In this document: piece after piece, positions 1 through 41,493 of the stretch
Numbering within the stretch: the stretch's first letter is position 1
Layout: every line of letters starts with the position of its first letter
Notes under the pieces: generated by a model
Databases searched by the model: none
Told to the model about the DNA's origin: nothing
Seen by the model: the letters and a program-made list of their open reading frames with translations, nothing else
Program-made: the position numbers and the translations under genes
Assembly: GCF_013315695.1 (NCBI RefSeq)
Contig: NZ_CP054353.1
Strand: one strand, 5' to 3'
From: Escherichia coli
Lineage (GTDB): Bacteria; Pseudomonadota; Gammaproteobacteria; Enterobacterales; Enterobacteriaceae
DNA: 64,000 nucleotides

Positions 1-533
1 GCGCGAAGATCATCCACGATCCACGTCTCTCCTGGAACACCGTTGATGTGGTGACTGCCGCAGGCGGCACCCCGGTAATGTCGAAAACCGGACACGCCTT
101 TATTAAAGAACGTATGCGCAAGGAAGACGCTATCTACGGTGGCGAAATGAGCGCCCACCATTACTTCCGTGATTTCGCTTACTGCGACAGCGGCATGATC
201 CCGTGGCTGCTGGTCGCCGAACTGGTGTGCCTGAAAGGAAAAACGCTGGGCGAACTGGTGCGCGACCGGATGGCGGCGTTTCCGGCAAGCGGTGAGATCA
301 ACAGCAAACTGGCGCAACCCGTTGAGGCGATTAACCGCGTGGAACAGCATTTTAGCCGTGAGGCGCTGGCGGTGGATCGCACCGATGGCATCAGCATGAC
401 CTTTGCCGACTGGCGCTTTAACCTGCGCTCCTCCAACACCGAACCGGTGGTGCGGTTGAATGTGGAATCGCGCGGTGATGTGCCGCTGATGGAAGCGCGA
501 ACGCGAACTCTGCTGACGTTGCTGAACGAGTAA
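1..533 (+). CDS. cpsG: phosphomannomutase, 3' part (gene begins upstream of window)
   Basis: ORF open to window edge; C-terminal sequence typical of phosphomannomutase; immediately upstream of wcaJ as in the colanic acid cluster. Confidence 0.8.
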
Positions 534-587
534 TGTCGGATCTTCCCTTACCCCACTGCGGGTAAGGGGCTAATAACAGGAACAACG

Positions 588-1982
588 ATGACAAATCTAA
601 AAAAGCGCGAGCGAGCGAAAACCAATGCATCGTTAATCTCTATGGTGCAACGCTTTTCAGATATCACCATCATGTTTGCCGGGCTATGGCTGGTTTGCGA
701 AGTGAGCGGACTGTCATTCCTCTACATGCACCTGTTGGTGGCGCTGATTACGCTGGTGGTGTTCCAGATGCTGGGCGGCATCACCGATTTTTATCGCTCA
801 TGGCGCGGTGTTCGGGCAGCGACAGAATTTGCCCTGCTGCTACAAAACTGGACCTTAAGCGTGATTTTCAGCGCCGGACTGGTGGCGTTCAACAATGATT
901 TCGACACGCAACTGAAAATCTGGCTGGCGTGGTATGGGCTGACCAGTATCGGACTGGTGGTTTGCCGTTCATGTATTCGCATTGGGGCGGGCTGGCTGCG
1001 TAATCATGGCTATAACAAGCGCATGGTCGCCGTAGCGGGGGATTTAGCCGCCGGACAAATGCTGATGGAGAGCTTCCGTAATCAGCCGTGGTTAGGGTTT
1101 GAAGTGGTGGGCGTATACCACGACCCAAAACCGGGCGGCGTTTCTAACGACTGGGCGGGCAATCTGCAACAACTGGTCGAGGATGCGAAAGCGGGCAAGA
1201 TTCATAACGTCTATATCGCGATGCAGATGTGCGACGGCGCGCGAGTGAAAAAACTGGTCCATCAACTGGCGGACACCACCTGTTCGGTGCTGCTGATCCC
1301 CGATGTCTTTACCTTCAACATTCTCCATTCACGCCTCGAAGAGATGAATGGCGTACCGGTGGTGCCGCTGTATGACACGCCGCTTTCCGGGGTTAACCGC
1401 CTGCTCAAACGTGCGGAAGACATTGTGCTGGCGACGCTTATCCTGCTGCTGATCTCCCCGGTGCTGTGCTGCATTGCGCTGGCGGTGAAACTGAGCTCAC
1501 CGGGGCCGGTTATTTTCCGCCAGACTCGCTACGGCATGGATGGCAAACCGATCAAAGTGTGGAAGTTCCGATCCATGAAAGTGATGGAGAACGACAAAGT
1601 GGTGACTCAGGCGACGCAGAACGATCCGCGCGTCACCAAAGTGGGGAACTTTCTGCGCCGCACCTCGCTGGACGAATTGCCGCAGTTTATCAATGTGCTG
1701 ACTGGCGGGATGTCGATTGTCGGTCCACGTCCGCACGCGGTGGCGCATAACGAACAGTATCGACAGCTCATTGAAGGCTACATGCTGCGCCATAAGGTGA
1801 AACCGGGCATTACCGGCTGGGCGCAGATTAATGGCTGGCGTGGCGAAACCGACACGCTGGAGAAAATGGAAAAACGCGTCGAGTTCGACCTTGAGTACAT
1901 CCGCGAATGGAGCGTCTGGTTCGATATCAAAATCGTTTTCCTGACGGTATTCAAGGGCTTCGTTAACAAAGCGGCATATTGA
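588..1982 (+). CDS. wcaJ: UDP-glucose:undecaprenyl-phosphate glucose-1-phosphate transferase (colanic acid)
   Basis: 464-aa ORF; membrane N-terminus plus sugar transferase C-domain (PRPHAVAHNEQY motif region); matches remembered K-12 WcaJ. Confidence 0.9.
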   Translation: MTNLKKRERAKTNASLISMVQRFSDITIMFAGLWLVCEVSGLSFLYMHLLVALITLVVFQMLGGITDFYRSWRGVRAATEFALLLQNWTLSVIFSAGLVAFNNDFDTQLKIWLAWYGLTSIGLVVCRSCIRIGAGWLRNHGYNKRMVAVAGDLAAGQMLMESFRNQPWLGFEVVGVYHDPKPGGVSNDWAGNLQQLVEDAKAGKIHNVYIAMQMCDGARVKKLVHQLADTTCSVLLIPDVFTFNILHSRLEEMNGVPVVPLYDTPLSGVNRLLKRAEDIVLATLILLLISPVLCCIALAVKLSSPGPVIFRQTRYGMDGKPIKVWKFRSMKVMENDKVVTQATQNDPRVTKVGNFLRRTSLDELPQFINVLTGGMSIVGPRPHAVAHNEQYRQLIEGYMLRHKVKPGITGWAQINGWRGETDTLEKMEKRVEFDLEYIREWSVWFDIKIVFLTVFKGFVNKAAY

Positions 1983-1983
1983 T

Positions 1984-3462
1984 ATGAGCTTACGTGAAAA
2001 AACCATCAGCGGCGCGAAGTGGTCGGCGATTGCCACGGTGATCATCATCGGCCTCGGGCTGGTGCAGATGACCGTGCTGGCGCGGATTATCGACAACCAC
2101 CAGTTCGGCCTGCTTACCGTGTCGCTGGTGATTATCGCGCTGGCAGATACGCTTTCTGACTTCGGTATCGCTAACTCGATTATTCAGCGAAAAGAAATCA
2201 GTCACCTGGAACTTACCACGTTGTACTGGCTGAACGTCGGGCTGGGGCTTGTGGTGTGCGTGGCGGTGTTTTTGTTGAGTGATCTCATTGGTGACGTGCT
2301 GAACAACCCAGACCTGGCACCGTTGATTAAAATATTGTCGCTGGCGTTTGTGGTGATCCCCCACGGACAGCAGTTCCGCGCGTTGATGCAAAAAGAGCTG
2401 GAGTTCAACAAAATCGGCATGATCGAAACCAGCGCGGTGCTGGCGGGCTTCACTTTTACGGTGGTTAGCGCCCATTTCTGGCCACTGGCGATGACCGCGA
2501 TCCTCGGTTATCTGGTCAATAGTGCGGTAAGAACGCTGCTGTTTGGCTACTTTGGTCGCAAAATTTATCGCCCCGGTCTGCATTTCTCGCTGGCGTCGGT
2601 GGCACCGAACTTACGCTTTGGTGCCTGGCTGACGGCGGACAGCATCATCAACTATCTCAATACCAACCTTTCAACGCTGGTGCTGGCGCGTATTCTCGGC
2701 GCGGGCGTGGCAGGGGGATACAACCTGGCGTACAACGTGGCCGTTGTGCCGCCGATGAAGCTGAACCCAATCATCACCCGCGTGTTGTTTCCGGCATTTG
2801 CCAAAATTCAGGACGACACCGAAAAGCTGCGCGTTAACTTCTACAAGCTGCTGTCGGTAGTGGGGATTATCAACTTTCCGGCGCTGCTGGGGCTGATGGT
2901 GGTGTCGAATAACTGTGTACCGCTGGTCTTTGGTGAGAAGTGGAACAGCATTATTCCGGTGCTGCAATTGCTGTGTGTGGTGGGGCTGCTGCGCTCAGTG
3001 GGGAACCCGATTGGTTCGCTGCTGATGGCGAAAGCGCGGGTCGATATCAGCTTTAAATTCAACGTATTCAAAACCTTTATGTTTATTCCGGCGATTGTTA
3101 TTGGTGGGCAGATGGCGGGCGCAATCGGCGTCACGCTTGGTTTCCTGCTGGTGCAGATTATCAACACCATTCTGAGCTATTTCGTGATGATTAAACCGGT
3201 GCTCGGTTCCAGTTATCGTCAGTACATCCTGAGTTTGTGGCTGCCGTTTTATCTCTCGCTGCCGACACTGGTGGTCAGTTATGCGCTGGGCCTATTGCTG
3301 AAAGGGCAACTGGCGCTGGGGATGCTGCTGGCGGTGCAAATAGCCGCGGGCGTGCTGGCGTTTGTGGTGATGATTGTGCTGTCGCGCCATCCGCTGGTGG
3401 TGGAAGTGAAGCGTCAGTTTTGTCGCAGCGAAAAAATGAAAATGCTTTTACGGGCGGGGTGA
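1984..3462 (+). CDS. wzxC: colanic acid repeat-unit flippase (Wzx family)
   Basis: 492-aa polytopic membrane ORF directly after wcaJ; matches remembered WzxC. Confidence 0.9.
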   Translation: MSLREKTISGAKWSAIATVIIIGLGLVQMTVLARIIDNHQFGLLTVSLVIIALADTLSDFGIANSIIQRKEISHLELTTLYWLNVGLGLVVCVAVFLLSDLIGDVLNNPDLAPLIKILSLAFVVIPHGQQFRALMQKELEFNKIGMIETSAVLAGFTFTVVSAHFWPLAMTAILGYLVNSAVRTLLFGYFGRKIYRPGLHFSLASVAPNLRFGAWLTADSIINYLNTNLSTLVLARILGAGVAGGYNLAYNVAVVPPMKLNPIITRVLFPAFAKIQDDTEKLRVNFYKLLSVVGIINFPALLGLMVVSNNCVPLVFGEKWNSIIPVLQLLCVVGLLRSVGNPIGSLLMAKARVDISFKFNVFKTFMFIPAIVIGGQMAGAIGVTLGFLLVQIINTILSYFVMIKPVLGSSYRQYILSLWLPFYLSLPTLVVSYALGLLLKGQLALGMLLAVQIAAGVLAFVVMIVLSRHPLVVEVKRQFCRSEKMKMLLRAG

Positions 3463-3491
3463 ATGGCTATCCCCGTAAGGTCGTGCGCATT

Positions 3492-3535
3492 TTCCCCCTC
3501 ACCCTAACCCTCTCCCCAGGGGGCGAGGGGACTGA
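3492..3535. repeat. REP-like imperfect palindromic extragenic element (tcccc..gagggga)
   Basis: Intergenic C/G-rich imperfect palindrome after wzxC; produces the spurious PLTLTLSPGGEG ORF typical of such repeats. Confidence 0.4.
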
Positions 3536-3623
3536 TCGAGCACAGCTTTGAATATGTCACCGGTTTAACTCTTAATCATCAACCATAGCACCGACGCAAT
3601 TTAGAACTCCTTTTGAGGTCATA

Positions 3624-4904
3624 ATGAAATTACTTATTCTGGGCAACCACACTTGCGGCAATCGTGGCGACAGCGCCATCCTGCGCGGCTTACTTGATGC
3701 CATCAACATCCTCAATCCACACGCCGAAGTGGACGTGATGAGCCGCTATCCGGTCAGTTCTTCCTGGCTGCTCAACCGCCCGGTAATGGGCGATCCGCTG
3801 TTCCTGCAAATGAAAAAACACAACAGCGCGGCGGGCGTTGTCGGGCGCGTTAAAAAAGTCCTCCGTCGCCGCTATCAGCATCAGGTATTGCTCTCACGCG
3901 TCACCGACACTGGCAAGCTGCGTAATATCGCCATCGCCCAGGGATTCACTGACTTCGTGCGCCTGCTGTCAGGTTACGACGCCATTATTCAGGTCGGCGG
4001 ATCGTTTTTTGTCGATCTCTACGGCGTGCCGCAGTTTGAACACGCGCTTTGCACTTTCATGGCGAAAAAGCCGCTATTTATGATTGGTCACAGCGTTGGT
4101 CCATTCCAGGATGAGCAATTTAACCAACTGGCGAACTACGTTTTTGGTCACTGCGACGCGCTGATCCTGCGCGAATCGGTCAGCCTTGAACTGATGAAAC
4201 GCAGCAATATCACCACCGCAAAAGTCGAACATGGCGTCGATACTGCGTGGCTGGTCGATCACCACACAGAAGACTTCACCGCCAGCTATGCCGTTCAACA
4301 CTGGCTGGACGTTGCCGCACAACAGAAAACGGTAGCAATTACCCTGCGCGAACTGGCACCGTTCGACAAACGTCTCGGCACCACTCAGCAAGCGTATGAA
4401 AAAGCCTTTGCCGGGGTGGTCAATCGCATTCTCGACGAAGGGTATCAGGTGATTGCGCTTTCCACCTGTACGGGCATCGACAGCTATAACAAAGACGACC
4501 GCATGGTGGCGCTCAATCTTCGCCAGCACATCAGCGATCCTGCCCGTTACCACGTGGTGATGGATGAACTCAACGATCTGGAAATGGGCAAAATTCTGGG
4601 GGCCTGTGAACTCACCGTCGGTACGCGCCTGCACTCTGCCATTATCTCGATGAACTTTGCCACTCCGGCGATTGCCATCAACTATGAACATAAATCCGCC
4701 GGGATTATGCAACAACTGGGGCTACCAGAGATGGCAATTGATATCCGTCATTTATTAGACGGCAGCCTGCAAGCGATGGTTGCGGATACCTTAGGCCAGC
4801 TTCCGGCACTGAACACGCGACTTAACGAAGCCGTCAGTCGCGAACGTCAGACGGGAATGCAGATGGTGAAATCTGTGCTTGAACGCATCGGGGAGGCGAA
4901 ATGA
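3624..4904 (+). CDS. wcaK: colanic acid biosynthesis pyruvyl transferase
   Basis: 426-aa ORF, N-terminus MKLLILGNHTCGNRGDSAILRGL matches remembered WcaK; synteny. Confidence 0.85.
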   Translation: MKLLILGNHTCGNRGDSAILRGLLDAINILNPHAEVDVMSRYPVSSSWLLNRPVMGDPLFLQMKKHNSAAGVVGRVKKVLRRRYQHQVLLSRVTDTGKLRNIAIAQGFTDFVRLLSGYDAIIQVGGSFFVDLYGVPQFEHALCTFMAKKPLFMIGHSVGPFQDEQFNQLANYVFGHCDALILRESVSLELMKRSNITTAKVEHGVDTAWLVDHHTEDFTASYAVQHWLDVAAQQKTVAITLRELAPFDKRLGTTQQAYEKAFAGVVNRILDEGYQVIALSTCTGIDSYNKDDRMVALNLRQHISDPARYHVVMDELNDLEMGKILGACELTVGTRLHSAIISMNFATPAIAINYEHKSAGIMQQLGLPEMAIDIRHLLDGSLQAMVADTLGQLPALNTRLNEAVSRERQTGMQMVKSVLERIGEAK

Positions 4905-6121
4905 AGGTCGGCTTCTTTTTACTGAAATTTCCACTGTCGTCGGAAACCTTCGTCCTCAATCAAATTACCGCGTTTATTGATATGGGCTTTGAGGTGGAGA
5001 TTGTCGCGCTGCAAAAAGGCGACACACAAAACACCCACGCGGCATGGACAAAATATAACCTTGCCGCCAGAACCCGCTGGTTACAGGACGAGCCACAAGG
5101 CAAAGTGGCGAAACTGCGCCACCGCGCCAGCCAGACGTTGCGCGGTATTCATCGTAAAAATACCTGGCAGGCGCTTAACCTCAAACGCTATGGTGCTGAG
5201 TCGCGGAACCTGATTTTGTCTGCCATTTGCGGCCAGGTCGCAACACCGTTTCATGCCGATGTGTTTATCGCTCATTTTGGCCCTGCTGGGGTAACCGCGG
5301 CAAAACTACGCGAACTGGGTGTCATTCGCGGCAAAATTGCCACTATCTTCCACGGTATTGATATCTCCAGTCGGGAAGTGCTCAACCACTACACTCCCGA
5401 ATATCAACAACTGTTTCGCCGTGGCGACCTGATGTTACCAATAAGCAATCTGTGGGCCGGAAGGCTGCAAAAAATGGGCTGCCCGAGGGAAAAAATCGCC
5501 GTATCGCGCATGGGCGTGGACATGACGCGTTTTAGCCCGCGTCCGGTGAAAGCGCCCGCAACGCCGCTGGAAATCATCTCCGTCGCACGCTTAACCGAGA
5601 AAAAAGGCCTGCATGTGGCGATTGAAGCCTGCCGCCAGTTGAAAGAGCAGGGCGTGGCATTTCGCTATCGCATCCTCGGCATTGGCCCGTGGGAACGACG
5701 CCTGCGCACCCTCATCGAACAATATCAACTGGAAGATGTGATAGAGATGCCGGGCTTTAAACCGAGCCATGAAGTGAAAGCGATGCTCGATGACGCGGAT
5801 GTCTTCCTGTTGCCATCGGTTACAGGTGCGGATGGCGATATGGAAGGTATTCCGGTGGCGCTAATGGAAGCGATGGCGGTTGGCATTCCGGTTGTTTCTA
5901 CTCTGCACAGCGGAATACCGGAACTGGTGGAGGCCGATAAATCCGGTTGGCTGGTGCCTGAGAACGATGCCTGTGCACTGGCGCAACGACTGGCGGCGTT
6001 TAGCCAACTGGACACCGACGAACTTACTACGGTTGTCAAACGTGCGCGCGAAAAAGTCGAACACGATTTTAACCAGCAGGTGATCAATCGAGAACTCGCC
6101 AGCTTGCTGCAGGCTTTATAG
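4901..6121 (+). CDS. wcaL: colanic acid glycosyltransferase (GT1/GT4-like)
   Basis: 406-aa ORF overlapping wcaK stop by 4 nt; GT-B type C-terminal domain; synteny. Confidence 0.85.
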
Positions 6122-6131
6122 AGGAGAACGT

Positions 6132-7526
6132 ATGCCATTTAAAAAACTCTCCCGACGCACCTTCCTGACGGCAAGCTCGGCGCTTGCCTTCCTCCATACC
6201 CCTTTCGCTCGCGCGCTTCCCGCCCGACAAATCGTTAACATTAACGACTACAACCCACACGACTGGATCGCCTCATTTAAACAAGCCTTCAGCGAAGGGC
6301 AAACGGTCGTCGTGCCTGCCGGATTCGTTTGTGAAAATATCAACACCGGCATCTTCATTCCTCCTGGCAAAACGTTGCACATCCTTGGAAGCCTGCGCGG
6401 CAACGGCAGAGGGCGTTTTGTCTTACAAGACGGCAGCCAGGTGACAGGGGAGAAGGGCGGCCGTATGCATAACATCACCCTGGATGTGCGCGGTTCTGAC
6501 TGCATCATCAAAGGGTTGGCGATGAGCGGTTTTGGCCCGGTAACGCAGATTTATATCGGCGGCAAAAATAAACGCGTCATGCGCAACTTGACCATCGATA
6601 ACCTGACCGTCAGCCACGCTAATTACGCCATTTTACGCCAGGGATTTCATAACCAGATTATCGGTGCCAACATCACCAATTGTAAGTTCAGCGACTTACA
6701 GGGCGACGCCATTGAATGGAATGTAGCAATCAATGATCGCGACATTTTGATATCCGACCATGTCATCGAGCGCATCAACTGTACTAACGGCAAAATCAAC
6801 TGGGGTATTGGCATAGGACTGGCAGGAAGTACTTACGATAATAATTATCCGGAAAACCAGGCAGTGAAAAACTTTGTCGTTGCGAATATCACGGGATCAG
6901 ATTGTCGGCAACTGATCCATGTTGAAAATGGTAAACATTTTGTTATCCGTAATATCAAAGCTCGTAATATCACGCCGGATTTCAGTAAGAAAGCAGGTAT
7001 TGATAACGCCACAGTTGCTATTTATGGTTGTGACAACTTTGTGATTGATAATATTGAAATGATTAATAGTGCCGGGATGTTAATCGGCTATGGGGTAATT
7101 AAAGGCAAATATCTCTCGATACCGCAGAATTTCCGAGTGAATGATATTCAACTGGATAATACTCATCTTGCTTATAAATTGCGCGGCATCCAAATCTCCG
7201 CCGGGAATGCTGTCTCCTTTGTGGCGCTGACTAACATTGAGATGAAGCGTGCGTCGCTGGAGTTACACAACAAACCGCAACATCTTTTTATGCGAAATAT
7301 CAATGTGATGCAGGAATCCTCAGTTGGACCCGCATTGAGCATGAACTTTGACATGCGCAAAGACGTTCGCGGCGTGTTTATGGCGAAAAAAGAAACACTG
7401 CTGTCTCTTGCAAATGTTCATGCGGTGAATGAAAAAGGACAAATCTCCGTCGATATCGACAGGATTAATCACCATATTGTTAATGTGGAGAAGATTAACT
7501 TTAGATTGCCAGAACGGAGGGAGTAG
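6132..7526 (+). CDS. wcaM: colanic acid biosynthesis protein WcaM (signal-peptide protein, beta-helix-like)
   Basis: 464-aa ORF with N-terminal signal-like sequence; last gene of the wca cluster before galF. Confidence 0.85.
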
Positions 7527-7700
7527 ATTTGCGACCATTCCTGGAAAAATGGAGTCATACTTAGGAACAATGCTACTGCAATCCACAACGAAGCGGCGTA
7601 ACATCACAAGTAATTCAGTAATCAATTCAGGGTAATTGATGCTGGCGAAAAAAATCGAACAAGCTATAATTCAGCAACCATTTTACAGGTGGATGAAATA

Positions 7701-8594
7701 ATGACGAATTTAAAAGCAGTTATTCCTGTAGCGGGTCTTGGGATGCATATGTTGCCTGCCACTAAGGCGATTCCCAAAGAGATGCTACCGATCGTCGACA
7801 AGCCAATGATTCAGTACATCGTTGACGAGATTGTGGCTGCAGGGATCAAAGAAATCCTCCTGGTAACTCACGCTTCCAAGAACGCGGTCGAAAACCACTT
7901 CGACACCTCTTATGAATTAGAATCTCTCCTTGAACAGCGCGTGAAGCGTCAACTGCTGGCGGAAGTACAGTCCATTTGCCCGCCGGGCGTGACAATTATG
8001 AACGTGCGTCAGGGCGAACCTTTAGGTTTGGGCCACTCCATTTTATGTGCACGACCTGCCATTGGTGACAATCCATTTGTCGTGGTGCTGCCAGACGTTG
8101 TGATCGACGACGCCAGCGCCGACCCGCTGCGCTACAACCTTGCTGCCATGATTGCGCGCTTCAACGAAACGGGCCGCAGCCAGGTGCTGGCAAAACGTAT
8201 GCCGGGTGACCTCTCTGAATACTCTGTCATCCAGACCAAAGAGCCGCTGGACCGCGAAGGTAAAGTCAGCCGCATTGTTGAATTCATCGAAAAACCGGAT
8301 CAGCCGCAGACGCTGGACTCAGACATCATGGCCGTTGGTCGCTATGTGCTTTCTGCCGATATTTGGCCGGAACTGGAACGCACGCAGCCTGGTGCATGGG
8401 GGCGTATTCAGCTGACTGATGCCATTGCCGAACTGGCGAAAAAACAGTCCGTTGATGCCATGCTGATGACCGGCGACAGCTACGACTGCGGTAAAAAAAT
8501 GGGTTATATGCAAGCGTTCGTGAAGTATGGACTACGCAACCTCAAAGAAGGGGCGAAGTTCCGTAAAGGGATTGAGAAGCTGTTAAGCGAATAA
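7701..8594 (+). CDS. galF: UTP-glucose-1-phosphate uridylyltransferase paralogue (regulatory subunit)
   Basis: ORF 7689..8594; ATG at 7701 gives [30 protein letters not shown], matching remembered GalF. Confidence 0.92.
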
Positions 8595-8852
8595 TGAAAA
8601 TCTGACCGGATGTAACGGTTGATAAGAAAATTATAACGGCAGTGAAGATTAGCGGCGAAAGTAATTTGTCGCGAATTTTCCTGCCGTTGTTTTATATAAA
8701 CAATCAGAATAACAACGACTTAGCAATAGGATTTTAGTCAAAGTTTTCCAGGATTTTCCTTGTTTCCAGAGCGGATTGGTAAGACAATTAGCGCTTGAAT
8801 TTTTCGAGTTAAGCGCGAGTGGGTAACGCTCGTCACATCGTAGGAATGCATG

Positions 8853-8891
8853 CAGTGCTCTGGTAGCTGTAAAGCCAGGGGCGGTAGCGTG
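8853..8891 (+). promoter_or_regulatory. JUMPStart element with ops site (GGCGGTAGCGTG) for RfaH-dependent antitermination
   Basis: cagtgctctggtagctgtaaagccaggggcggtagcgtg about 75 bp upstream of rmlB; ops 12-mer at 8880..8891. Confidence 0.8.
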
Positions 8892-8966
8892 CATTAATAC
8901 CTCTATTAATCAAACTGAGAGCCGCTTATTTCACAGCATGCTCTGAAGTAATATGGAATAAATTAA

Positions 8967-10052
8967 GTGAAGATACTTGTTACTGGGGGCGCAGGATTTA
9001 TTGGTTCTGCTGTAGTTCGTCACATTATAAATAATACGCAGGATAGTGTTGTTAATGTCGATAAATTAACGTACGCCGGAAACCTGGAATCACTTGCTGA
9101 TGTTTCTGACTCTGAACGCTATGTTTTTGAACATGCGGATATTTGCGATGCTGCTGCAATGGCGCGGATTTTTGCTCAGCATCAGCCGGATGCAGTGATG
9201 CACCTGGCTGCTGAAAGCCATGTGGATCGTTCAATTACAGGCCCTGCGGCATTTATTGAAACCAATATTGTTGGTACTTATGTCCTTTTGGAAGCGGCTC
9301 GCAATTACTGGTCTGCTCTTGATGGCGACAAGAAAAATAGCTTCCGTTTTCATCATATTTCTACTGACGAAGTCTATGGTGATTTGCCTCATCCTGACGA
9401 AGTAAATAATAAAGAACAATTACCCCTCTTTACTGAGACGACAGCTTACGCGCCTAGTAGTCCTTATTCCGCATCAAAAGCATCCAGCGATCATTTAGTC
9501 CGCGCGTGGAAACGTACCTATGGTTTACCGACTATTGTGACTAACTGTTCGAATAACTACGGTCCTTATCACTTTCCGGAAAAATTGATTCCACTAGTAA
9601 TTCTTAATGCTCTGGAAGGTAAGGCATTACCTATTTATGGCAAAGGGGATCAAATTCGTGACTGGCTGTATGTTGAAGATCATGCGCGTGCGTTATATAC
9701 CGTAGTTACTGAAGGTCAAGCGGGTGAAACCTATAACATTGGCGGACACAACGAAAAGAAAAACATCGATGTTGTGCTGACTATTTGTGATTTGTTGGAC
9801 GAGATAGTCCCGAAAGAGAAATCTTATCGTGAGCAAATTACTTATGTTGCTGATCGCCCAGGGCATGATCGCCGTTATGCGATTGATGCTGAGAAGATTG
9901 GTCGCGAATTGGGATGGAAACCACAGGAAACGTTTGAGAGTGGGATTCGTAAAACGGTGGAATGGTATTTGGCTAATGCAAAATGGGTTGATAATGTGAA
10001 AAGTGGTGCCTATCAATCGTGGATTGAACAGAACTATGAGGGCCGCCAGTAA
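8967..10052 (+). CDS. rmlB: dTDP-glucose 4,6-dehydratase
   Basis: 361-aa ORF, GTG start, [14 protein letters not shown]ossmann N-terminus; first gene of the O-antigen cluster. Confidence 0.95.
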
Positions 10053-37835: not shown

Positions 37836-39008
37836 TTGCTGTTGAAACGCCGTCTTATTATTGCTGCTTCTTTGTTCGTTTTTAATTTATCGTCTGGTTT
37901 TGCGGCGGAAAACATTCCTTTTTCACCTCAACCTCCAGAGATTCATGCCGGGTCCTGGGTATTGATGGATTACACCACCGGTCAGATTCTCACCGCGGGT
38001 AATGAGCATCAACAGCGCAATCCCGCCAGCCTGACAAAGCTGATGACGGGCTATGTCGTGGATCGCGCTATCGATAGTCATCGCATTACGCCAGACGATA
38101 TTGTCACCGTGGGGCGTGATGCGTGGGCGAAAGATAATCCGGTGTTTGTCGGTTCTTCACTGATGTTTTTGAAAGAGGGCGATCGCGTATCGGTACGTGA
38201 TTTAAGCCGTGGTTTAATTGTGGATTCCGGAAATGACGCTTGTGTTGCACTGGCTGACTATATTGCCGGTGGGCAACGGCAGTTTGTTGAAATGATGAAC
38301 AACTATGCCGAGAAGCTGCATCTCAAGGATACGCATTTTGAAACAGTGCATGGTCTGGATGCACCTGGCCAGCATAGCTCGGCTTATGATTTAGCTGTGC
38401 TTTCTCGCGCTATCATCCACGGCGAGCCCGAGTTTTATCATATGTACAGTGAGAAAAGCCTCACCTGGAACGGTATCACCCAGCAAAACCGTAACGGGTT
38501 ATTGTGGGATAAAACCATGAATGTTGACGGCCTGAAAACGGGTCATACTTCTGGTGCCGGGTTTAATCTCATTGCTTCGGCTGTAGATGGGCAGCGTCGT
38601 CTCATTGCAGTGGTAATGGGGGCTGACAGCGCAAAAGGTCGTGAGGAAGAGGCAAGAAAATTACTGCGTTGGGGTCAACAAAACTTTACTACGGTGCAAA
38701 TTTTGCACCGTGGGAAAAAGGTTGGTACGGAACGCATCTGGTATGGCGATAAAGAAAATATCGCCCTGGGAACGGAACAAGAGTTCTGGATGGTGCTACC
38801 GAAAGCCGAAATTCCACATATCAAAGCCAAATATACCCTTGATGGTAAAGAACTCACCGCGCCAATTAGCGCCCATCAGCGGGTAGGGGAAATTGAACTT
38901 TACGACCGTGATAAACAGGTGGCGCACTGGCCGCTGGTTACCCTGGAATCTGTCGGGGAAGGCAGCATGTTTTCCCGGCTGAGTGATTATTTCCACCATA
39001 AGGACTGA
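37836..39008 (+). CDS. dacD: D-alanyl-D-alanine carboxypeptidase (PBP6b)
   Basis: 390-aa ORF with TTG start; signal peptide; SLTK (SxxK) active-site motif. Confidence 0.9.
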   Translation: MLLKRRLIIAASLFVFNLSSGFAAENIPFSPQPPEIHAGSWVLMDYTTGQILTAGNEHQQRNPASLTKLMTGYVVDRAIDSHRITPDDIVTVGRDAWAKDNPVFVGSSLMFLKEGDRVSVRDLSRGLIVDSGNDACVALADYIAGGQRQFVEMMNNYAEKLHLKDTHFETVHGLDAPGQHSSAYDLAVLSRAIIHGEPEFYHMYSEKSLTWNGITQQNRNGLLWDKTMNVDGLKTGHTSGAGFNLIASAVDGQRRLIAVVMGADSAKGREEEARKLLRWGQQNFTTVQILHRGKKVGTERIWYGDKENIALGTEQEFWMVLPKAEIPHIKAKYTLDGKELTAPISAHQRVGEIELYDRDKQVAHWPLVTLESVGEGSMFSRLSDYFHHKD

Positions 39009-39092
39009 CCTTTCTTTTGCAGCAGACTGGCAGGAGTGCGAGTCTGCTCGCATAATCAACACTCATTCCTTGTGGTTTTAATATTGCAACTA

Positions 39093-39106
39093 TACTGTAT
39101 ATAAAA
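39093..39106 (+). promoter_or_regulatory. left half of a split LexA box (TACTGT + spacer ATATAAAA) with the overlapping candidate sbmC promoter -10 TATACT
   Basis: Joined to 40992..41005 it reconstitutes TACTGTATATAAAAACAGTA (CTGT-N8-ACAG). Confidence 0.7.
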
Positions 39107-39205
39107 GGGTCTTCCCCTGTTGTGGTGGGTGGTACATAATTGAGTGATTTTCAAACACCACACAGTACCTTTATGGTGTCTCTTTTTACATGAGAGGGAA
39201 TTCTT

Positions 39206-39724
39206 ATGAGTGTGCCGCAAACAAAAGCTGAACTGCTTTTAGCTATTGATAAAAATTTTAGTAAATTAATTAGTTACCTCAACACAATCCCACCAGAAAT
39301 TACTTCAGATAAATCAATGGACGGACACGCCAAAGGAACGGAGATGAGTGTTCGTGATCTCGTTTCGTATCTGCTTGGATGGAATGCTCTTGTTGTAAAG
39401 TGGATCGCTTCTGATGCTAAAGGTCTGCCTGTCGATTTTCCGGAAACTGGCTATAAATGGAATCAGCTTGGCCTTCTTGCTCAAAAATTTTACTCAGATT
39501 ACAGTGAGTTAAGTTATGAGTTGTTAGTAGCTGAACTTCAGACTGTAAAAAATGAGATTGTGAACCTTATTAATGATCGTACCGATGATATTTTGTATGG
39601 AAGACCATGGTACACAAAATGGACGATGGGGAGAATGATCTCATTTAACACATCTTCGCCTTACGCCAACGCTAATGGAAGATTAAGAAAGTGGGCAAAA
39701 AATAATAATATCAGTTTAAAGTAA
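39206..39724 (+). CDS. ClbS/DfsB-like (DUF1706) protein, putative colibactin/DNA-damage self-protection protein; passenger gene of the ISL3 element
   Basis: 172-aa ORF with good RBS (gagaggga); shares with remembered ClbS the motifs HAKGT, VSYLxGW, LGxLAQKFY, YGxPWYxKWTxGRMIxFNTxSPYxNAxGRL. Confidence 0.6.
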   Translation: MSVPQTKAELLLAIDKNFSKLISYLNTIPPEITSDKSMDGHAKGTEMSVRDLVSYLLGWNALVVKWIASDAKGLPVDFPETGYKWNQLGLLAQKFYSDYSELSYELLVAELQTVKNEIVNLINDRTDDILYGRPWYTKWTMGRMISFNTSSPYANANGRLRKWAKNNNISLK

Positions 39725-39742
39725 GCTTCAGAATGAAATTAT

Positions 39743-40963
39743 ATGGACGAAAAATCCCTCTATGCCCATATCCTTAACCTGACTGCACCATGGCAGGTTA
39801 AATCCCTTACCCTCGATGAAAATGCAGGTTCCGTTACTGTTACAGTCGGAATTGCTGAAAATACTCAGTTAACCTGTCCGACCTGCAGGAAATCCTGTTC
39901 TGTTCACGATCACCGACATCGTAAATGGCGCCACCTTGATACCTGCCAGTTCATGACATTAGTAGAAGCCGATGTTCCCCGCGTTATGTGCCCGGAGCAT
40001 GGCTGCCAGACTCTGCCTGTACCGTGGGCAGGTTCCGGCAGTCGGTACACTCTGCTGTTCGAATCGTTCGTGCTCTCATGGCTTAAAATCAGCACCGTTG
40101 ATGCGGTCAGAAAACAACTTAAACTTAGCTGGAATGCCGTTGACGGCATCATGACCCGCGCGGTTAAGCGAGGCCTGTCGCGGATTAAAAAGCCTTTATC
40201 AGTGCGTCATATGAATGTAGACGAAGTCGCCTTTAAAAAAGGGCATAGGTATATAACCGTGGTATCTGATCGCGACGGGCGGGCACTGGCATTAACCGAT
40301 GATCGTGGCACAGAGAGTCTTGCCAGCTATCTCCGTTCGCTTACTGACAGTCAGTTGTTGGCCATCAAAACACTGTCGATGGACATGAATGCGGGCTATA
40401 TAAGAGCAGCGCGTATCCATTTACCCAATGCGGTCGAGAAAATCGCCTTCGATCGCTTCCATGTGGCGAAGCAACTGGGCGAAGTGGTTGATAAAACCCG
40501 CCAGAATGAACATCCGCACCTCCCTGTTGAAAGTCGTCGTCAGGCCAAAGGTACCCGCTTCCTGTGGCAGTACAGCGACAAATGGATGACTGAGTCCCGG
40601 CAGGAAAAGCTGATGTGGTTGCGGGAACAGATGCAACAGACAAGCCAGTGCTGGACACTGAAAGAGCTGGCAAAAAATATCTGGGATCGCCCCTGGAGCA
40701 CAGAACGCAGGAATGACTGGTTGCAGTGGATATCGCTGGCGTCTGAATGTGATGTGCCGATGATGAAAAACGCAGCGAAAACCATTAAAAAACGGTTATA
40801 CGGAATACTGAATGCAATGCGTCATCGCGTCTCGAATGGAAATGCGGAGGCGCTGAACAGCAAGATCAGACTGCTGAGGATAAAGGCCAGGGGATACCGA
40901 AACCGGGAACGCTTTAAACTGGGAGTTATGTTCCACTATGGGAAACTGAATATGGCGTACTGA
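39743..40963 (+). CDS. ISL3-family transposase
   Basis: 406-aa ORF; N-terminal Cys-rich zf-ISL3-like region ([14 protein letters not shown]) followed by a DDE_Tnp_ISL3-like domain; stop codon abuts the right inverted repeat. Confidence 0.85.
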
Positions 40964-40991
40964 GTCTTCCCACCATGATCGGGGAAGACCC

Positions 40992-41005
40992 ATATAAAAA
41001 CAGTA
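40992..41005 (+). promoter_or_regulatory. right half of the split LexA box (duplicated spacer ATATAAAA + ACAGTA) upstream of sbmC
   Basis: Sits 15 bp upstream of the sbmC ATG; see 39093..39106. Confidence 0.7.
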
Positions 41006-41019
41006 TTAATGGGGGCGTC

Positions 41020-41493
41020 ATGAACTACGAGATTAAGCAGGAAGATAAACGTACCGTTGCAGGTTTCCATCTCGTTGGCCCGTGGGAACAGACGGTAAAG
41101 AAAGGCTTTGAGCAGTTGATGATGTGGATAGATAGCAAAAATATTGTGCCGAAGGAGTGGGTTGCTGTCTATTACGACAATCCAGATGAAACACCCGCCG
41201 AAAAATTACGCTGCGACACCGTCGTGACGGTGCCGAATAACTTTACGCTCCCCGAAAACAGTGAGGGCGTCATTCTGACAGAAATTTCAGGTGGTCAGTA
41301 TGCGGTGGCGGTGGCTCGTGTAGTCGGTGATGATTTTGCTAAACCCTGGTATCAGTTCTTTAATAGCCTCTTGCAGGACAGTGCCTATGAAATGTTACCA
41401 AAGCCCTGCTTCGAGGTTTACTTGAACAATGGCGCGGAAGATGGGTACTGGGATATCGAAATGTATGTTGCGGTGCAGCCAAAACATCACTAA
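41020..41493 (+). CDS. sbmC: DNA gyrase inhibitor SbmC (GyrI)
   Basis: ORF 40975..41493; ATG at 41020 gives [24 protein letters not shown] (157 aa). Confidence 0.92.

Follow-up and report, generated by a model that had tools for sequence, protein, structure and literature searches.

The sbmC (gyrI) gene of Escherichia coli is listed in the literature as an SOS gene. In the DNA analysed here, a 64-kb stretch of E. coli (hereafter, the window), the LexA operator of sbmC is interrupted by an insertion sequence of the ISEc53 family (ISL3), which carries a clbS-like passenger gene. As a whole, we consider the following explanation likely: the ISL3 clade to which this element belongs targets LexA operators, the sbmC box was split, the sbmC control region was redirected into the element, and direct reading of the operator by the transposase is the favoured mode of target choice. 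A 2.2-kb query across the insertion was 100% identical to E. coli Nissle 1917, ATCC 25922, and other genomes of the sequence type 73 (ST73) kind, and by sequence the window is assigned to an ST73-like E. coli. The identical genomes are annotated, in order, with dacD, 'ClbS/DfsB family four-helix bundle protein', 'ISL3-like element ISEc53 family transposase', and sbmC.

The insertion was delimited by alignment with the uninterrupted sbmC locus of E. coli W (CAACTATACTGTATATAAAAACAGTGTTAATGG), which holds an intact LexA box (TACTGTATATAAAAACAGT). Relative to E. coli W, the window contains a 1,885-bp insertion at 39107-40991, flanked by an 8-bp direct repeat (ATATAAAA) and co-directional with sbmC. 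The sbmC LexA box, TACTGT-ATATAAAA-ACAGTA, is split at its exact centre, and its 8-bp spacer is the duplicated sequence. A motif search found the terminal inverted repeats, GGGTCTTCCCC and GGGGAAGACCC, in only these two places of the window (0.01 expected). The hexamers TTGTGG (39070-39075) and TATACT (39091-39096), both half-sites, and the distances between them were recovered as the preliminary description had placed them. The displacement of sbmC, which it had put at about 1.9 kb, was measured as 1,893 bp, and only the right half-box and the ribosome-binding site remain with sbmC. Its further claim, that the upstream control region now points into the element, also held, as the left half-box, TTGTGG, TATACT, and the CRP-S activator site all lie left of the insertion.

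Elsewhere in E. coli, copies of the element show at most 1 nt difference (0-1 nt), which suggests a recent spread, and near-identical copies occur at different loci. Intact empty sites were found elsewhere for three loci, namely the sbmC box, a plasmid box, and a box before a hydrolase gene. The modelled empty plasmid box was intact at 100% identity in 2,218 plasmids, and the modelled empty hydrolase box in 2,599 E. coli genomes. CTGT and ACAG had been considered as parts of the element itself; this was rejected because the empty sites contain the intact box. By its DDE transposase, terminal inverted repeats, 8-bp duplication, and mobile copies, the element is classified as an ISL3-family insertion sequence.

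LexA operators were scored with a weight matrix of 29 E. coli boxes attributed to Lewis 1994 and Fernandez de Henestrosa 2000. The reconstructed pre-insertion sbmC box scored 26.1 bits, and the known boxes ranged from 12.5 to 26.9 bits. Each junction 20-mer scored -2.6 bits, far below the weakest of the 29 known boxes, so that, by matrix score, the operator is destroyed on both sides of the insertion. The best 20-mers nearby scored -1.7 bits (39060-39210) and -2.6 bits (40900-41030). These scores agree with the earlier statement that no complete LexA operator is left.

The preliminary description had treated the location of the insertion as an accident. This view was abandoned, since LexA boxes proved to be the normal target of the clade. 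Exact matches to the 23-nt left end, with the flank unconstrained, were collected from viral contigs, one genome per species, and metagenome contigs. The scan returned 81 occurrences with 32 distinct left flanks; the one-genome-per-species part supplied only 3 loci. CTGT stood at exactly -12 to -9 in 29 of the 32 flanks (column counts C30, T31, G32, and T30), and the spacer consensus was ATATATAT. The three exceptional flanks were one CGGT with ACAG opposite, a copy in fimB of ST131 with the degenerate box ATGG-ATATATAT-ACAC (11.2 bits; loci L004, L026, and L068), and locus L051 without a box. An independent scan with the right end in viral contigs gave 29 distinct flanks, with ACAG (26), ACAT (2), or CCAG (1) at +9 to +12. 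Where the element lay wholly within a contig, CTGT-N8 was present on the left in 17 of 17 cases. At eight sites where both flanks were available and the duplications matched exactly, the reconstructed boxes scored 13.4-26.8 bits. The resemblance extends beyond the core: the non-core LexA score of the targets was +7.6 bits, against -8.0 ± 5.1 bits for 5,409 background CTGT words, and the spacers held 7.0 A/T of 8, against 3.9 of 8 in the background.

The genes that start beside these boxes encode UmuD (at three different sites), DNA polymerase IV (DinB), a DinI-like protein, and SbmC. Further neighbours were the N-terminus of DinD, a protein with a colicin pore-forming domain, and several small phage proteins. 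In E. coli, one chromosomal copy occupies AACTGT-ACATTCAT-ACAGCA before an alpha/beta hydrolase gene, and a plasmid copy occupies TGCTGT-ATGTATAT-ACAGTA before a dinI-like/umuDC operon.

Relatives with 64-88% transposase identity, which carry a different cargo or none, target LexA boxes as ISEc53 does. An Enterobacter bugandensis element of 1,849 bp (L083-L088; 87% transposase identity) occupies boxes at umuDC and at tisB as well as one box of the CTGG type; its cargo, in place of the clbS-like gene, is a 146-amino acid (aa) open reading frame (ORF) whose product has a signal peptide and a cupin-like core. Prophage contigs (L108-L138) often hold elements of 1,315-1,316 bp that lack cargo, and these always lie in boxes; transposase P0048 (69% identity, element of 1,315 bp) is taken as a member of this group. 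A Providencia element (64%) was found in one perfect box and one half box, and Sodalis ISSoEn4 (71%) adjoins uvrD behind CTGG-N8. Transposase relatives from Achromobacter, at 46% identity, showed no clear target pattern. The ends of distant relatives were read by eye. Because relatives with other cargo or none behave alike, the target preference is attributed, from these sequence comparisons, to the transposase clade and not to the cargo.

The sbmC box itself was occupied repeatedly. The orientation of the window, with the right end beside sbmC, occurred in 161 of 5,426 complete E. coli genomes, and the inverted orientation, with the right end beside dacD, in 101 of the 5,426 and in two metagenome contigs (L050 and L062). 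The two orientations imply at least two separate hits on this box. Both orientations were also seen at the hydrolase box and at the umu-type box of plasmids. Across sites, the regulated gene adjoins the left end about as often as the right end; hence, the element does not systematically put its own genes behind an SOS promoter, and the window is the co-directional case. Junction queries with 100 nt of the left end returned fewer genomes than right-end queries (80 vs 161 and 27 vs 101). Five inspected genomes had a normal left junction, and the lower counts are treated as undercounts. In strain 266917_2 (L082; 2690-2710 and 4570-4600), the terminal base of the left end is T and not C, which might immobilise this inverted copy.

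Elements of this clade integrate by 8-bp staggered cuts exactly between the arms of CTGT-N8-ACAG. The AT-rich spacer becomes the target duplication, and the operator is left as two half-sites. Operator splitting and promoter redirection are regarded as general properties of the element because the LexA box is the normal target of the clade.

A chance insertion of an AT-preferring insertion sequence into a LexA box can hardly be credited. ISL3 elements generally prefer AT-rich 8-bp targets, and such a habit would favour spacers of this kind. However, CTGT at a fixed offset is expected at about 0.4% per site and was found in nearly all left flanks; ACAG was likewise at a fixed offset in 26 of 29 right flanks, and the sbmC box was hit independently in both orientations. 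A more serious alternative concerns the way in which the operator is found. The transposase may not itself read the DNA sequence but be guided by LexA; it would capture operators to which a LexA dimer is bound and which the dimer has bent, and would cut the exposed central spacer. The match of the targets to the LexA motif outside CTGT/ACAG is consistent with this, as are the use of real SOS-gene operators rather than random CTGT-N8-ACAG words and the use of the LexA-tolerated variants CCAG and CTGG. The cuts also fall at the edges of a stretch that LexA does not contact; the crystal structure of the LexA-operator complex by Zhang, Pigli and Rice in 2010 is said to show this central stretch free of contacts. 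On the other side, CTGT exceeded CTGG/CTGA by 36:1 in the target half-sites, compared with 37:20 in natural E. coli boxes (p = 1e-4). Insertions also occurred at sites that score below any known LexA box and are unlikely to bind LexA (the fimB site, ATGG-N8-ACAC, at 11.2 bits; L089 at 5.8 bits; L095 at 9.1 bits), and the general AT preference of ISL3 elements could alone explain the spacer match. Because the CTGT bias is stricter than in natural boxes and sub-LexA sites are used, we tentatively favour a symmetric transposase complex that reads the palindrome directly over recruitment by operator-bound LexA. Both arguments are soft, as the reference boxes are 29 compiled from the literature and strong boxes would also be the most occupied ones. 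We regard guidance by LexA as possible but doubtful.

The consequence for sbmC depends on the side on which its promoter lies. Between the insertion point and the sbmC ATG there are only 28 nt (40992-41019), and these already hold the ribosome-binding site. Because a promoter cannot fit into this space, the sbmC promoter, or at least its -35 element and activator site, must on this reckoning lie left of the insertion. sbmC is reported to be CRP- and Sxy-dependent through a CRP-S site and a class I mechanism, and the motif definition was taken from the same source (PMC1635313). A perfect CRP-S motif (TGCGA-N6-TCGCA) is located at 39037-39052 and is unique in the window (0.11 expected). Its centre is 61.5 bp from 39106, the last base before the element, and this fits the canonical class I distance for a transcript predicted to start in the A-run at 39103-39106. 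In a relaxed scan, TATACT was the sole hexamer with A2 and T6 placed for such a start; its overlap with the left half-box is a feature shared with many SOS promoters. The assignments of the -10 element and the activator site appear well supported. The candidate -35, TTGTGG, is weak, which suits a promoter dependent on CRP and stationary phase. The consensus scan covered spacers of 16-18 bp and hence did not list the TTGTGG/TATACT pair, whose spacer is 15 bp. According to Culyba 2018, no sigma-70 promoter is predicted for sbmC. The support for this promoter comes from geometry and literature because the hexamers alone are no better than chance.

On this assignment, the sbmC control region would remain intact on the left, with the CRP-S site, the weak -35, the -10 TATACT, and a start at about 39103-39106. 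Freed of LexA repression, it would read into the left end of the element and across the clbS-like and transposase genes; the distance from TATACT to the clbS-like ATG (39206) is 110 nt. Transcription probably runs on into sbmC because no terminator is predicted in the element (consensus scan of the + strand for terminator-like sites). sbmC would thus stand at the end of a transcript that depends on CRP/Sxy and stationary phase and is blind to SOS, and it would probably be expressed more weakly than from its own promoter. A LexA-independent transcript over the clbS-like gene, the transposase gene, and, by read-through, sbmC is the most likely outcome predicted. The CRP-S site is predicted to serve the element instead of sbmC after the insertion. 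In the relaxed scan, no junction promoter before sbmC scored above 7/12, and no outward promoter was detected at either element end. A hybrid promoter at either junction was considered and rejected, as no candidate scored high enough. Weak promoter-like pairs inside the element leader were found at 39112-39140 and 39150-39177 (8/12). The folds of the two junction leaders were non-significant (z = -1.7 and -0.7) and were not used as evidence.

Published proteomics touches on the predicted loss of SOS control. Under ciprofloxacin, with wild type compared with a recA deletion, SbmC was listed as strongly RecA-dependent only for isolate FI 24; in the ST73 strains ATCC 25922 and FI 4, DinI and YebG were listed as RecA-dependent and SbmC was not (PMC11039860). 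SbmC does not appear in the supplement to the proteomics paper on ATCC 25922. The pattern is a weak hint at such a loss; the sequence type of FI 24 was not retrieved.

The fate of the displaced gene varies. The reading frame of sbmC is unbroken in the window and in ETEC-2265, strain 266917_2, and E. coli W. Strains 504838, AR_0069, TW10590, and 90-9281 (L104-L107) carry the element in the sbmC box in the orientation of the window and have a common 1-nt deletion at sbmC nt 311, which leads to a stop at codon 135. This frameshift, shared by a clade of enterotoxigenic E. coli (ETEC), may be the decay of a gene that lost its promoter.

Several observations weigh against a rewired sbmC and against the scoring behind it. 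The promoter hexamers are not above chance: 3 promoter-like sites were found, compared with 3.8 ± 2.2 in shuffles, and TTGTGG/TATACT scored 8/12 in the relaxed scan, tied with several others. In a genome-wide start-site set of K-12, the only start for sbmC has 2 reads and maps within dacD, at a distance of 571 nt upstream (PMC3415461). A fold of the 5' leader around the start of the clbS-like gene is feasible (z = -1.7, non-significant), and together with the internal 8/12 pairs this may mean that read-through adds little. The frameshift of the ETEC clade and the roughly 101 inverted copies may mean that sbmC expression is simply lost and not rewired. The LexA matrix was built from literature boxes, 29 in number, and some metagenomic flanks are possibly not independent events.

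Two other accounts of transcription were weighed. The native sbmC promoter could lie right of the insertion, leaving sbmC normally LexA-regulated. This is very improbable: just 28 nt with the ribosome-binding site precede the ATG, the right junction scores -2.6 bits as a LexA box, and no promoter-like pair exceeds 7/12. Alternatively, the element may be insulated and sbmC silenced. Transcripts from the old promoter would then be weak or useless, the element would use its own weak promoters, and the lineage would tolerate this. The internal 8/12 pairs are in keeping with such an arrangement, and so is the shared sbmC frameshift in the ETEC clade with the insertion. In the inverted orientation, moreover, sbmC is cut from its promoter and the clbS-like gene must be internally driven or unexpressed. 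In E. albertii, native expression of close clbS-like homologues is enough for protection (PMC8907063), which may bear on this if that copy lies in such an element. However, there is no terminator-like structure between the promoter and sbmC; the promoter, the activator site, and the initial transcribed A-run are untouched, and both the window and ST73 genomes have an intact sbmC. Insulation of the element together with silencing of sbmC is conceivable but, in our estimate, unlikely, and the redirected control region with read-through into sbmC is preferred.

Table 1. Features of the sbmC locus in the window (positions are those of the 64-kb stretch).
Feature	Position	Strand	Evidence or remark
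dacD, upstream neighbour	37836..39008	+	ORF list; RefSeq annotation of identical genomes
CRP-S site TGCGAGTCTGCTCGCA	39037..39052, centre 39044.5		sole match in 64-kb window
candidate -35 TTGTGG	39070..39075	+	3/6 matches; 15-bp spacer; weak element of the assignment
candidate -10 TATACT	39091..39096	+	5/6 matches; overlaps left LexA half-site
left LexA half-site TACTGT	39093..39098		alignment with empty site; weight-matrix scores
target duplication ATATAAAA, left copy	39099..39106		LexA-box spacer
ISEc53-family ISL3 insertion sequence, 1,885 bp	39107..40991	+	annotation in identical genomes
left terminal inverted repeat GGGTCTTCCCCTGTTGTGGTGGG	39107..39129	+	inverted-repeat and motif search
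clbS-like / DfsB passenger gene, 172 aa, DUF1706	39206..39724	+	Pfam PF08020
ISL3-family DDE transposase, 406 aa	39743..40963	+	NCBIfam NF033550
right terminal inverted repeat CCCACCATGATCGGGGAAGACCC	40969..40991	+	within local hairpin
target duplication ATATAAAA, right copy	40992..40999		
right LexA half-site ACAGTA	41000..41005		empty-site alignment; weight-matrix scores
sbmC (gyrI), intact, 157 aa	41020..41493	+	GGGGG ribosome-binding site 41011-41015

The transposase matched its NCBIfam model with 328.3 bits (cut-off 180), and the identical transposase cluster carries the Pfam domains Zn_ribbon_ISL3, HTH_Tnp_ISL3, and DDE_Tnp_ISL3 (PF14690, PF13542, and PF01610). SbmC matched the NCBIfam equivalog NF007451 with 302 bits (cut-off 179). 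The clbS-like protein has no NCBIfam model; it belongs to DUF1706 (Pfam PF08020, E 3e-54) and is identical to PDB 5COF, an entry that assigns no function. Its alignment with ClbS (6ANR) covered 165 residues at E 1e-55, with Tyr55 aligned to Tyr55. Tyr55 of ClbS is reportedly catalytic, as attributed to Tripathi et al. in 2017. The clbS-like protein thus resembles ClbS, which gives self-protection against the colibactin of the pks island, in its DUF1706 four-helix bundle and aligned Tyr55; it differs in being encoded on a transposable element and not in the pks cluster. Colibactin protection by the present protein is putative and is drawn from homologues: ClbS-like proteins of 25-80% identity protected against colibactin (PMC8907063). 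On chromosomes and plasmids of E. coli, the clbS-like gene has been reported to travel together with one ISL3 transposase 'near otherwise unrelated genes' (10.1101/2025.11.17.686825).

Some further observations concern individual copies and local structures. The clbS-like gene of ETEC-2265 has a frameshift. Strain 504838 shows two further insertions, one of an IS66-family element within the transposase gene of ISEc53 and one of an IS3-family element in the sbmC 3' end. At the right element end of the window, a hairpin pairs 40961-40971 with 40982-40992, and a T-run is absent. A 12-nt inverted repeat (39021-39032 with 39037-39048) embeds the CRP-S motif and could act as a 3' hairpin of dacD; it too has no T-run. 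In L051, a canonical element is inserted without a recognisable box (CGGTGA-TTATAGTG, about 40 nt left of the element end), and in the fimB copy L004 the right-hand duplication lacks an AT dinucleotide. The most frequently recovered site was the dinI-like/umuDC operator of conjugative plasmids (L003 plus another 36 metagenome contigs); there the insertion cuts the operon of the mutagenic polymerase off from its promoter. The 14-kb metagenome contig Ga0209903_1000498 holds two element copies in two boxes, one of them before a umuD gene. In L026, L064, L068, and L135, the two flanks of one element come from different LexA boxes, which indicates either recombination between copies (inversions or deletions) or a chimeric assembly over the repeat.

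A published account of ISEc53-clade target choice, LexA boxes, or SOS neighbours was not found in a search that was made without ISfinder and most subscription journals, and we see only a small chance that the target preference has already been described somewhere. Colibactin protection by ClbS-like proteins and their linkage to ISL3 transposases were known; the LexA-operator target habit of the clade is apparently new.

Each copy of the clade is expected to take one gene or operon out of LexA control, and either to cut it off from a damage-inducible promoter or to link it to one anew. Among the genes concerned are error-prone polymerases (umuDC and dinB), colicins, the toxin TisB, and sbmC, a modulator of gyrase poisoning by quinolones and microcin B17. 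Such insertions could alter mutagenesis, persistence, and drug responses between otherwise similar strains. The sbmC operator is occupied in about 5% of complete E. coli genomes, and because Nissle 1917 and ATCC 25922 are among them, K-12-like behaviour should not be assumed for sbmC-based SOS read-outs in these two strains. LexA boxes on conjugative plasmids and prophages offer a horizontal route, which fits the reported plasmid-borne spread of the clbS-like colibactin-immunity gene. The way in which the transposase finds the operator is directly testable with simple genetics. Should operator-bound LexA be the landing signal, a proposition to which we give less than even weight, the transposase would be guided by a global transcription factor and transposition would be tied to the SOS state of the cell. 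LexA control would then be systematically lost from SOS genes (mutagenic polymerases, colicins, toxins, and sbmC), and a genotoxin-immunity gene would be spread through the SOS operators of conjugative plasmids and prophages.

The element of the window agrees with ISEc53, which interrupts fimB in E. coli ST131, in its ISL3 DDE transposase with zinc ribbon and helix-turn-helix, its imperfect repeats of about 23 bp, and its 8-bp AT-rich duplication. The published picture of ISEc53 differs: the preprint (10.1101/2025.11.17.686825) calls the neighbours 'otherwise unrelated genes', and the fimB site of ST131 is a degenerate box. Among elements with a preferred target, IS1397 and ISKpn1 (IS3 family) insert into the palindromes of repetitive extragenic palindromic (REP) sequences and bacterial interspersed mosaic elements (BIME). 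The ISEc53 clade likewise uses a fixed position in a short, dispersed palindromic host motif, which provides many safe sites per genome. In contrast to these elements, it has a transposase of another family and its target is the operator of a global repressor, so each insertion alters the regulation of an SOS gene; this target is also common on conjugative plasmids and prophages. DDE elements of the TnGBS and ISLgar5 type insert 15-17 bp upstream of sigma-A promoters, and they share with the ISEc53 clade a DDE transposition aimed at a class of transcription signals and not at one locus. They leave the promoter intact, whereas the ISEc53 clade lands inside the operator and destroys it. Tn7 uses dedicated target-selector proteins, with a TnsD/attTn7 pathway to a single attachment site and a TnsE pathway. 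The combination of safe chromosomal sites with a preference for sites on mobile DNA is common to both, but in the ISEc53 clade a single-ORF transposase uses tens of sites per genome. Insertion sequences can also capture or activate promoters, as IS1 and IS5 do at bgl, ISAba1 at bla genes, and the ISL3 member IS1411 by outward promoters. The present insertion similarly changes the pairing of a promoter with the gene that is read; unlike in those cases, the predicted transcript runs from the host promoter into the element, and the host gene has been displaced downstream. As a target class of target-specific transposition, the operator of a repressor is apparently new.

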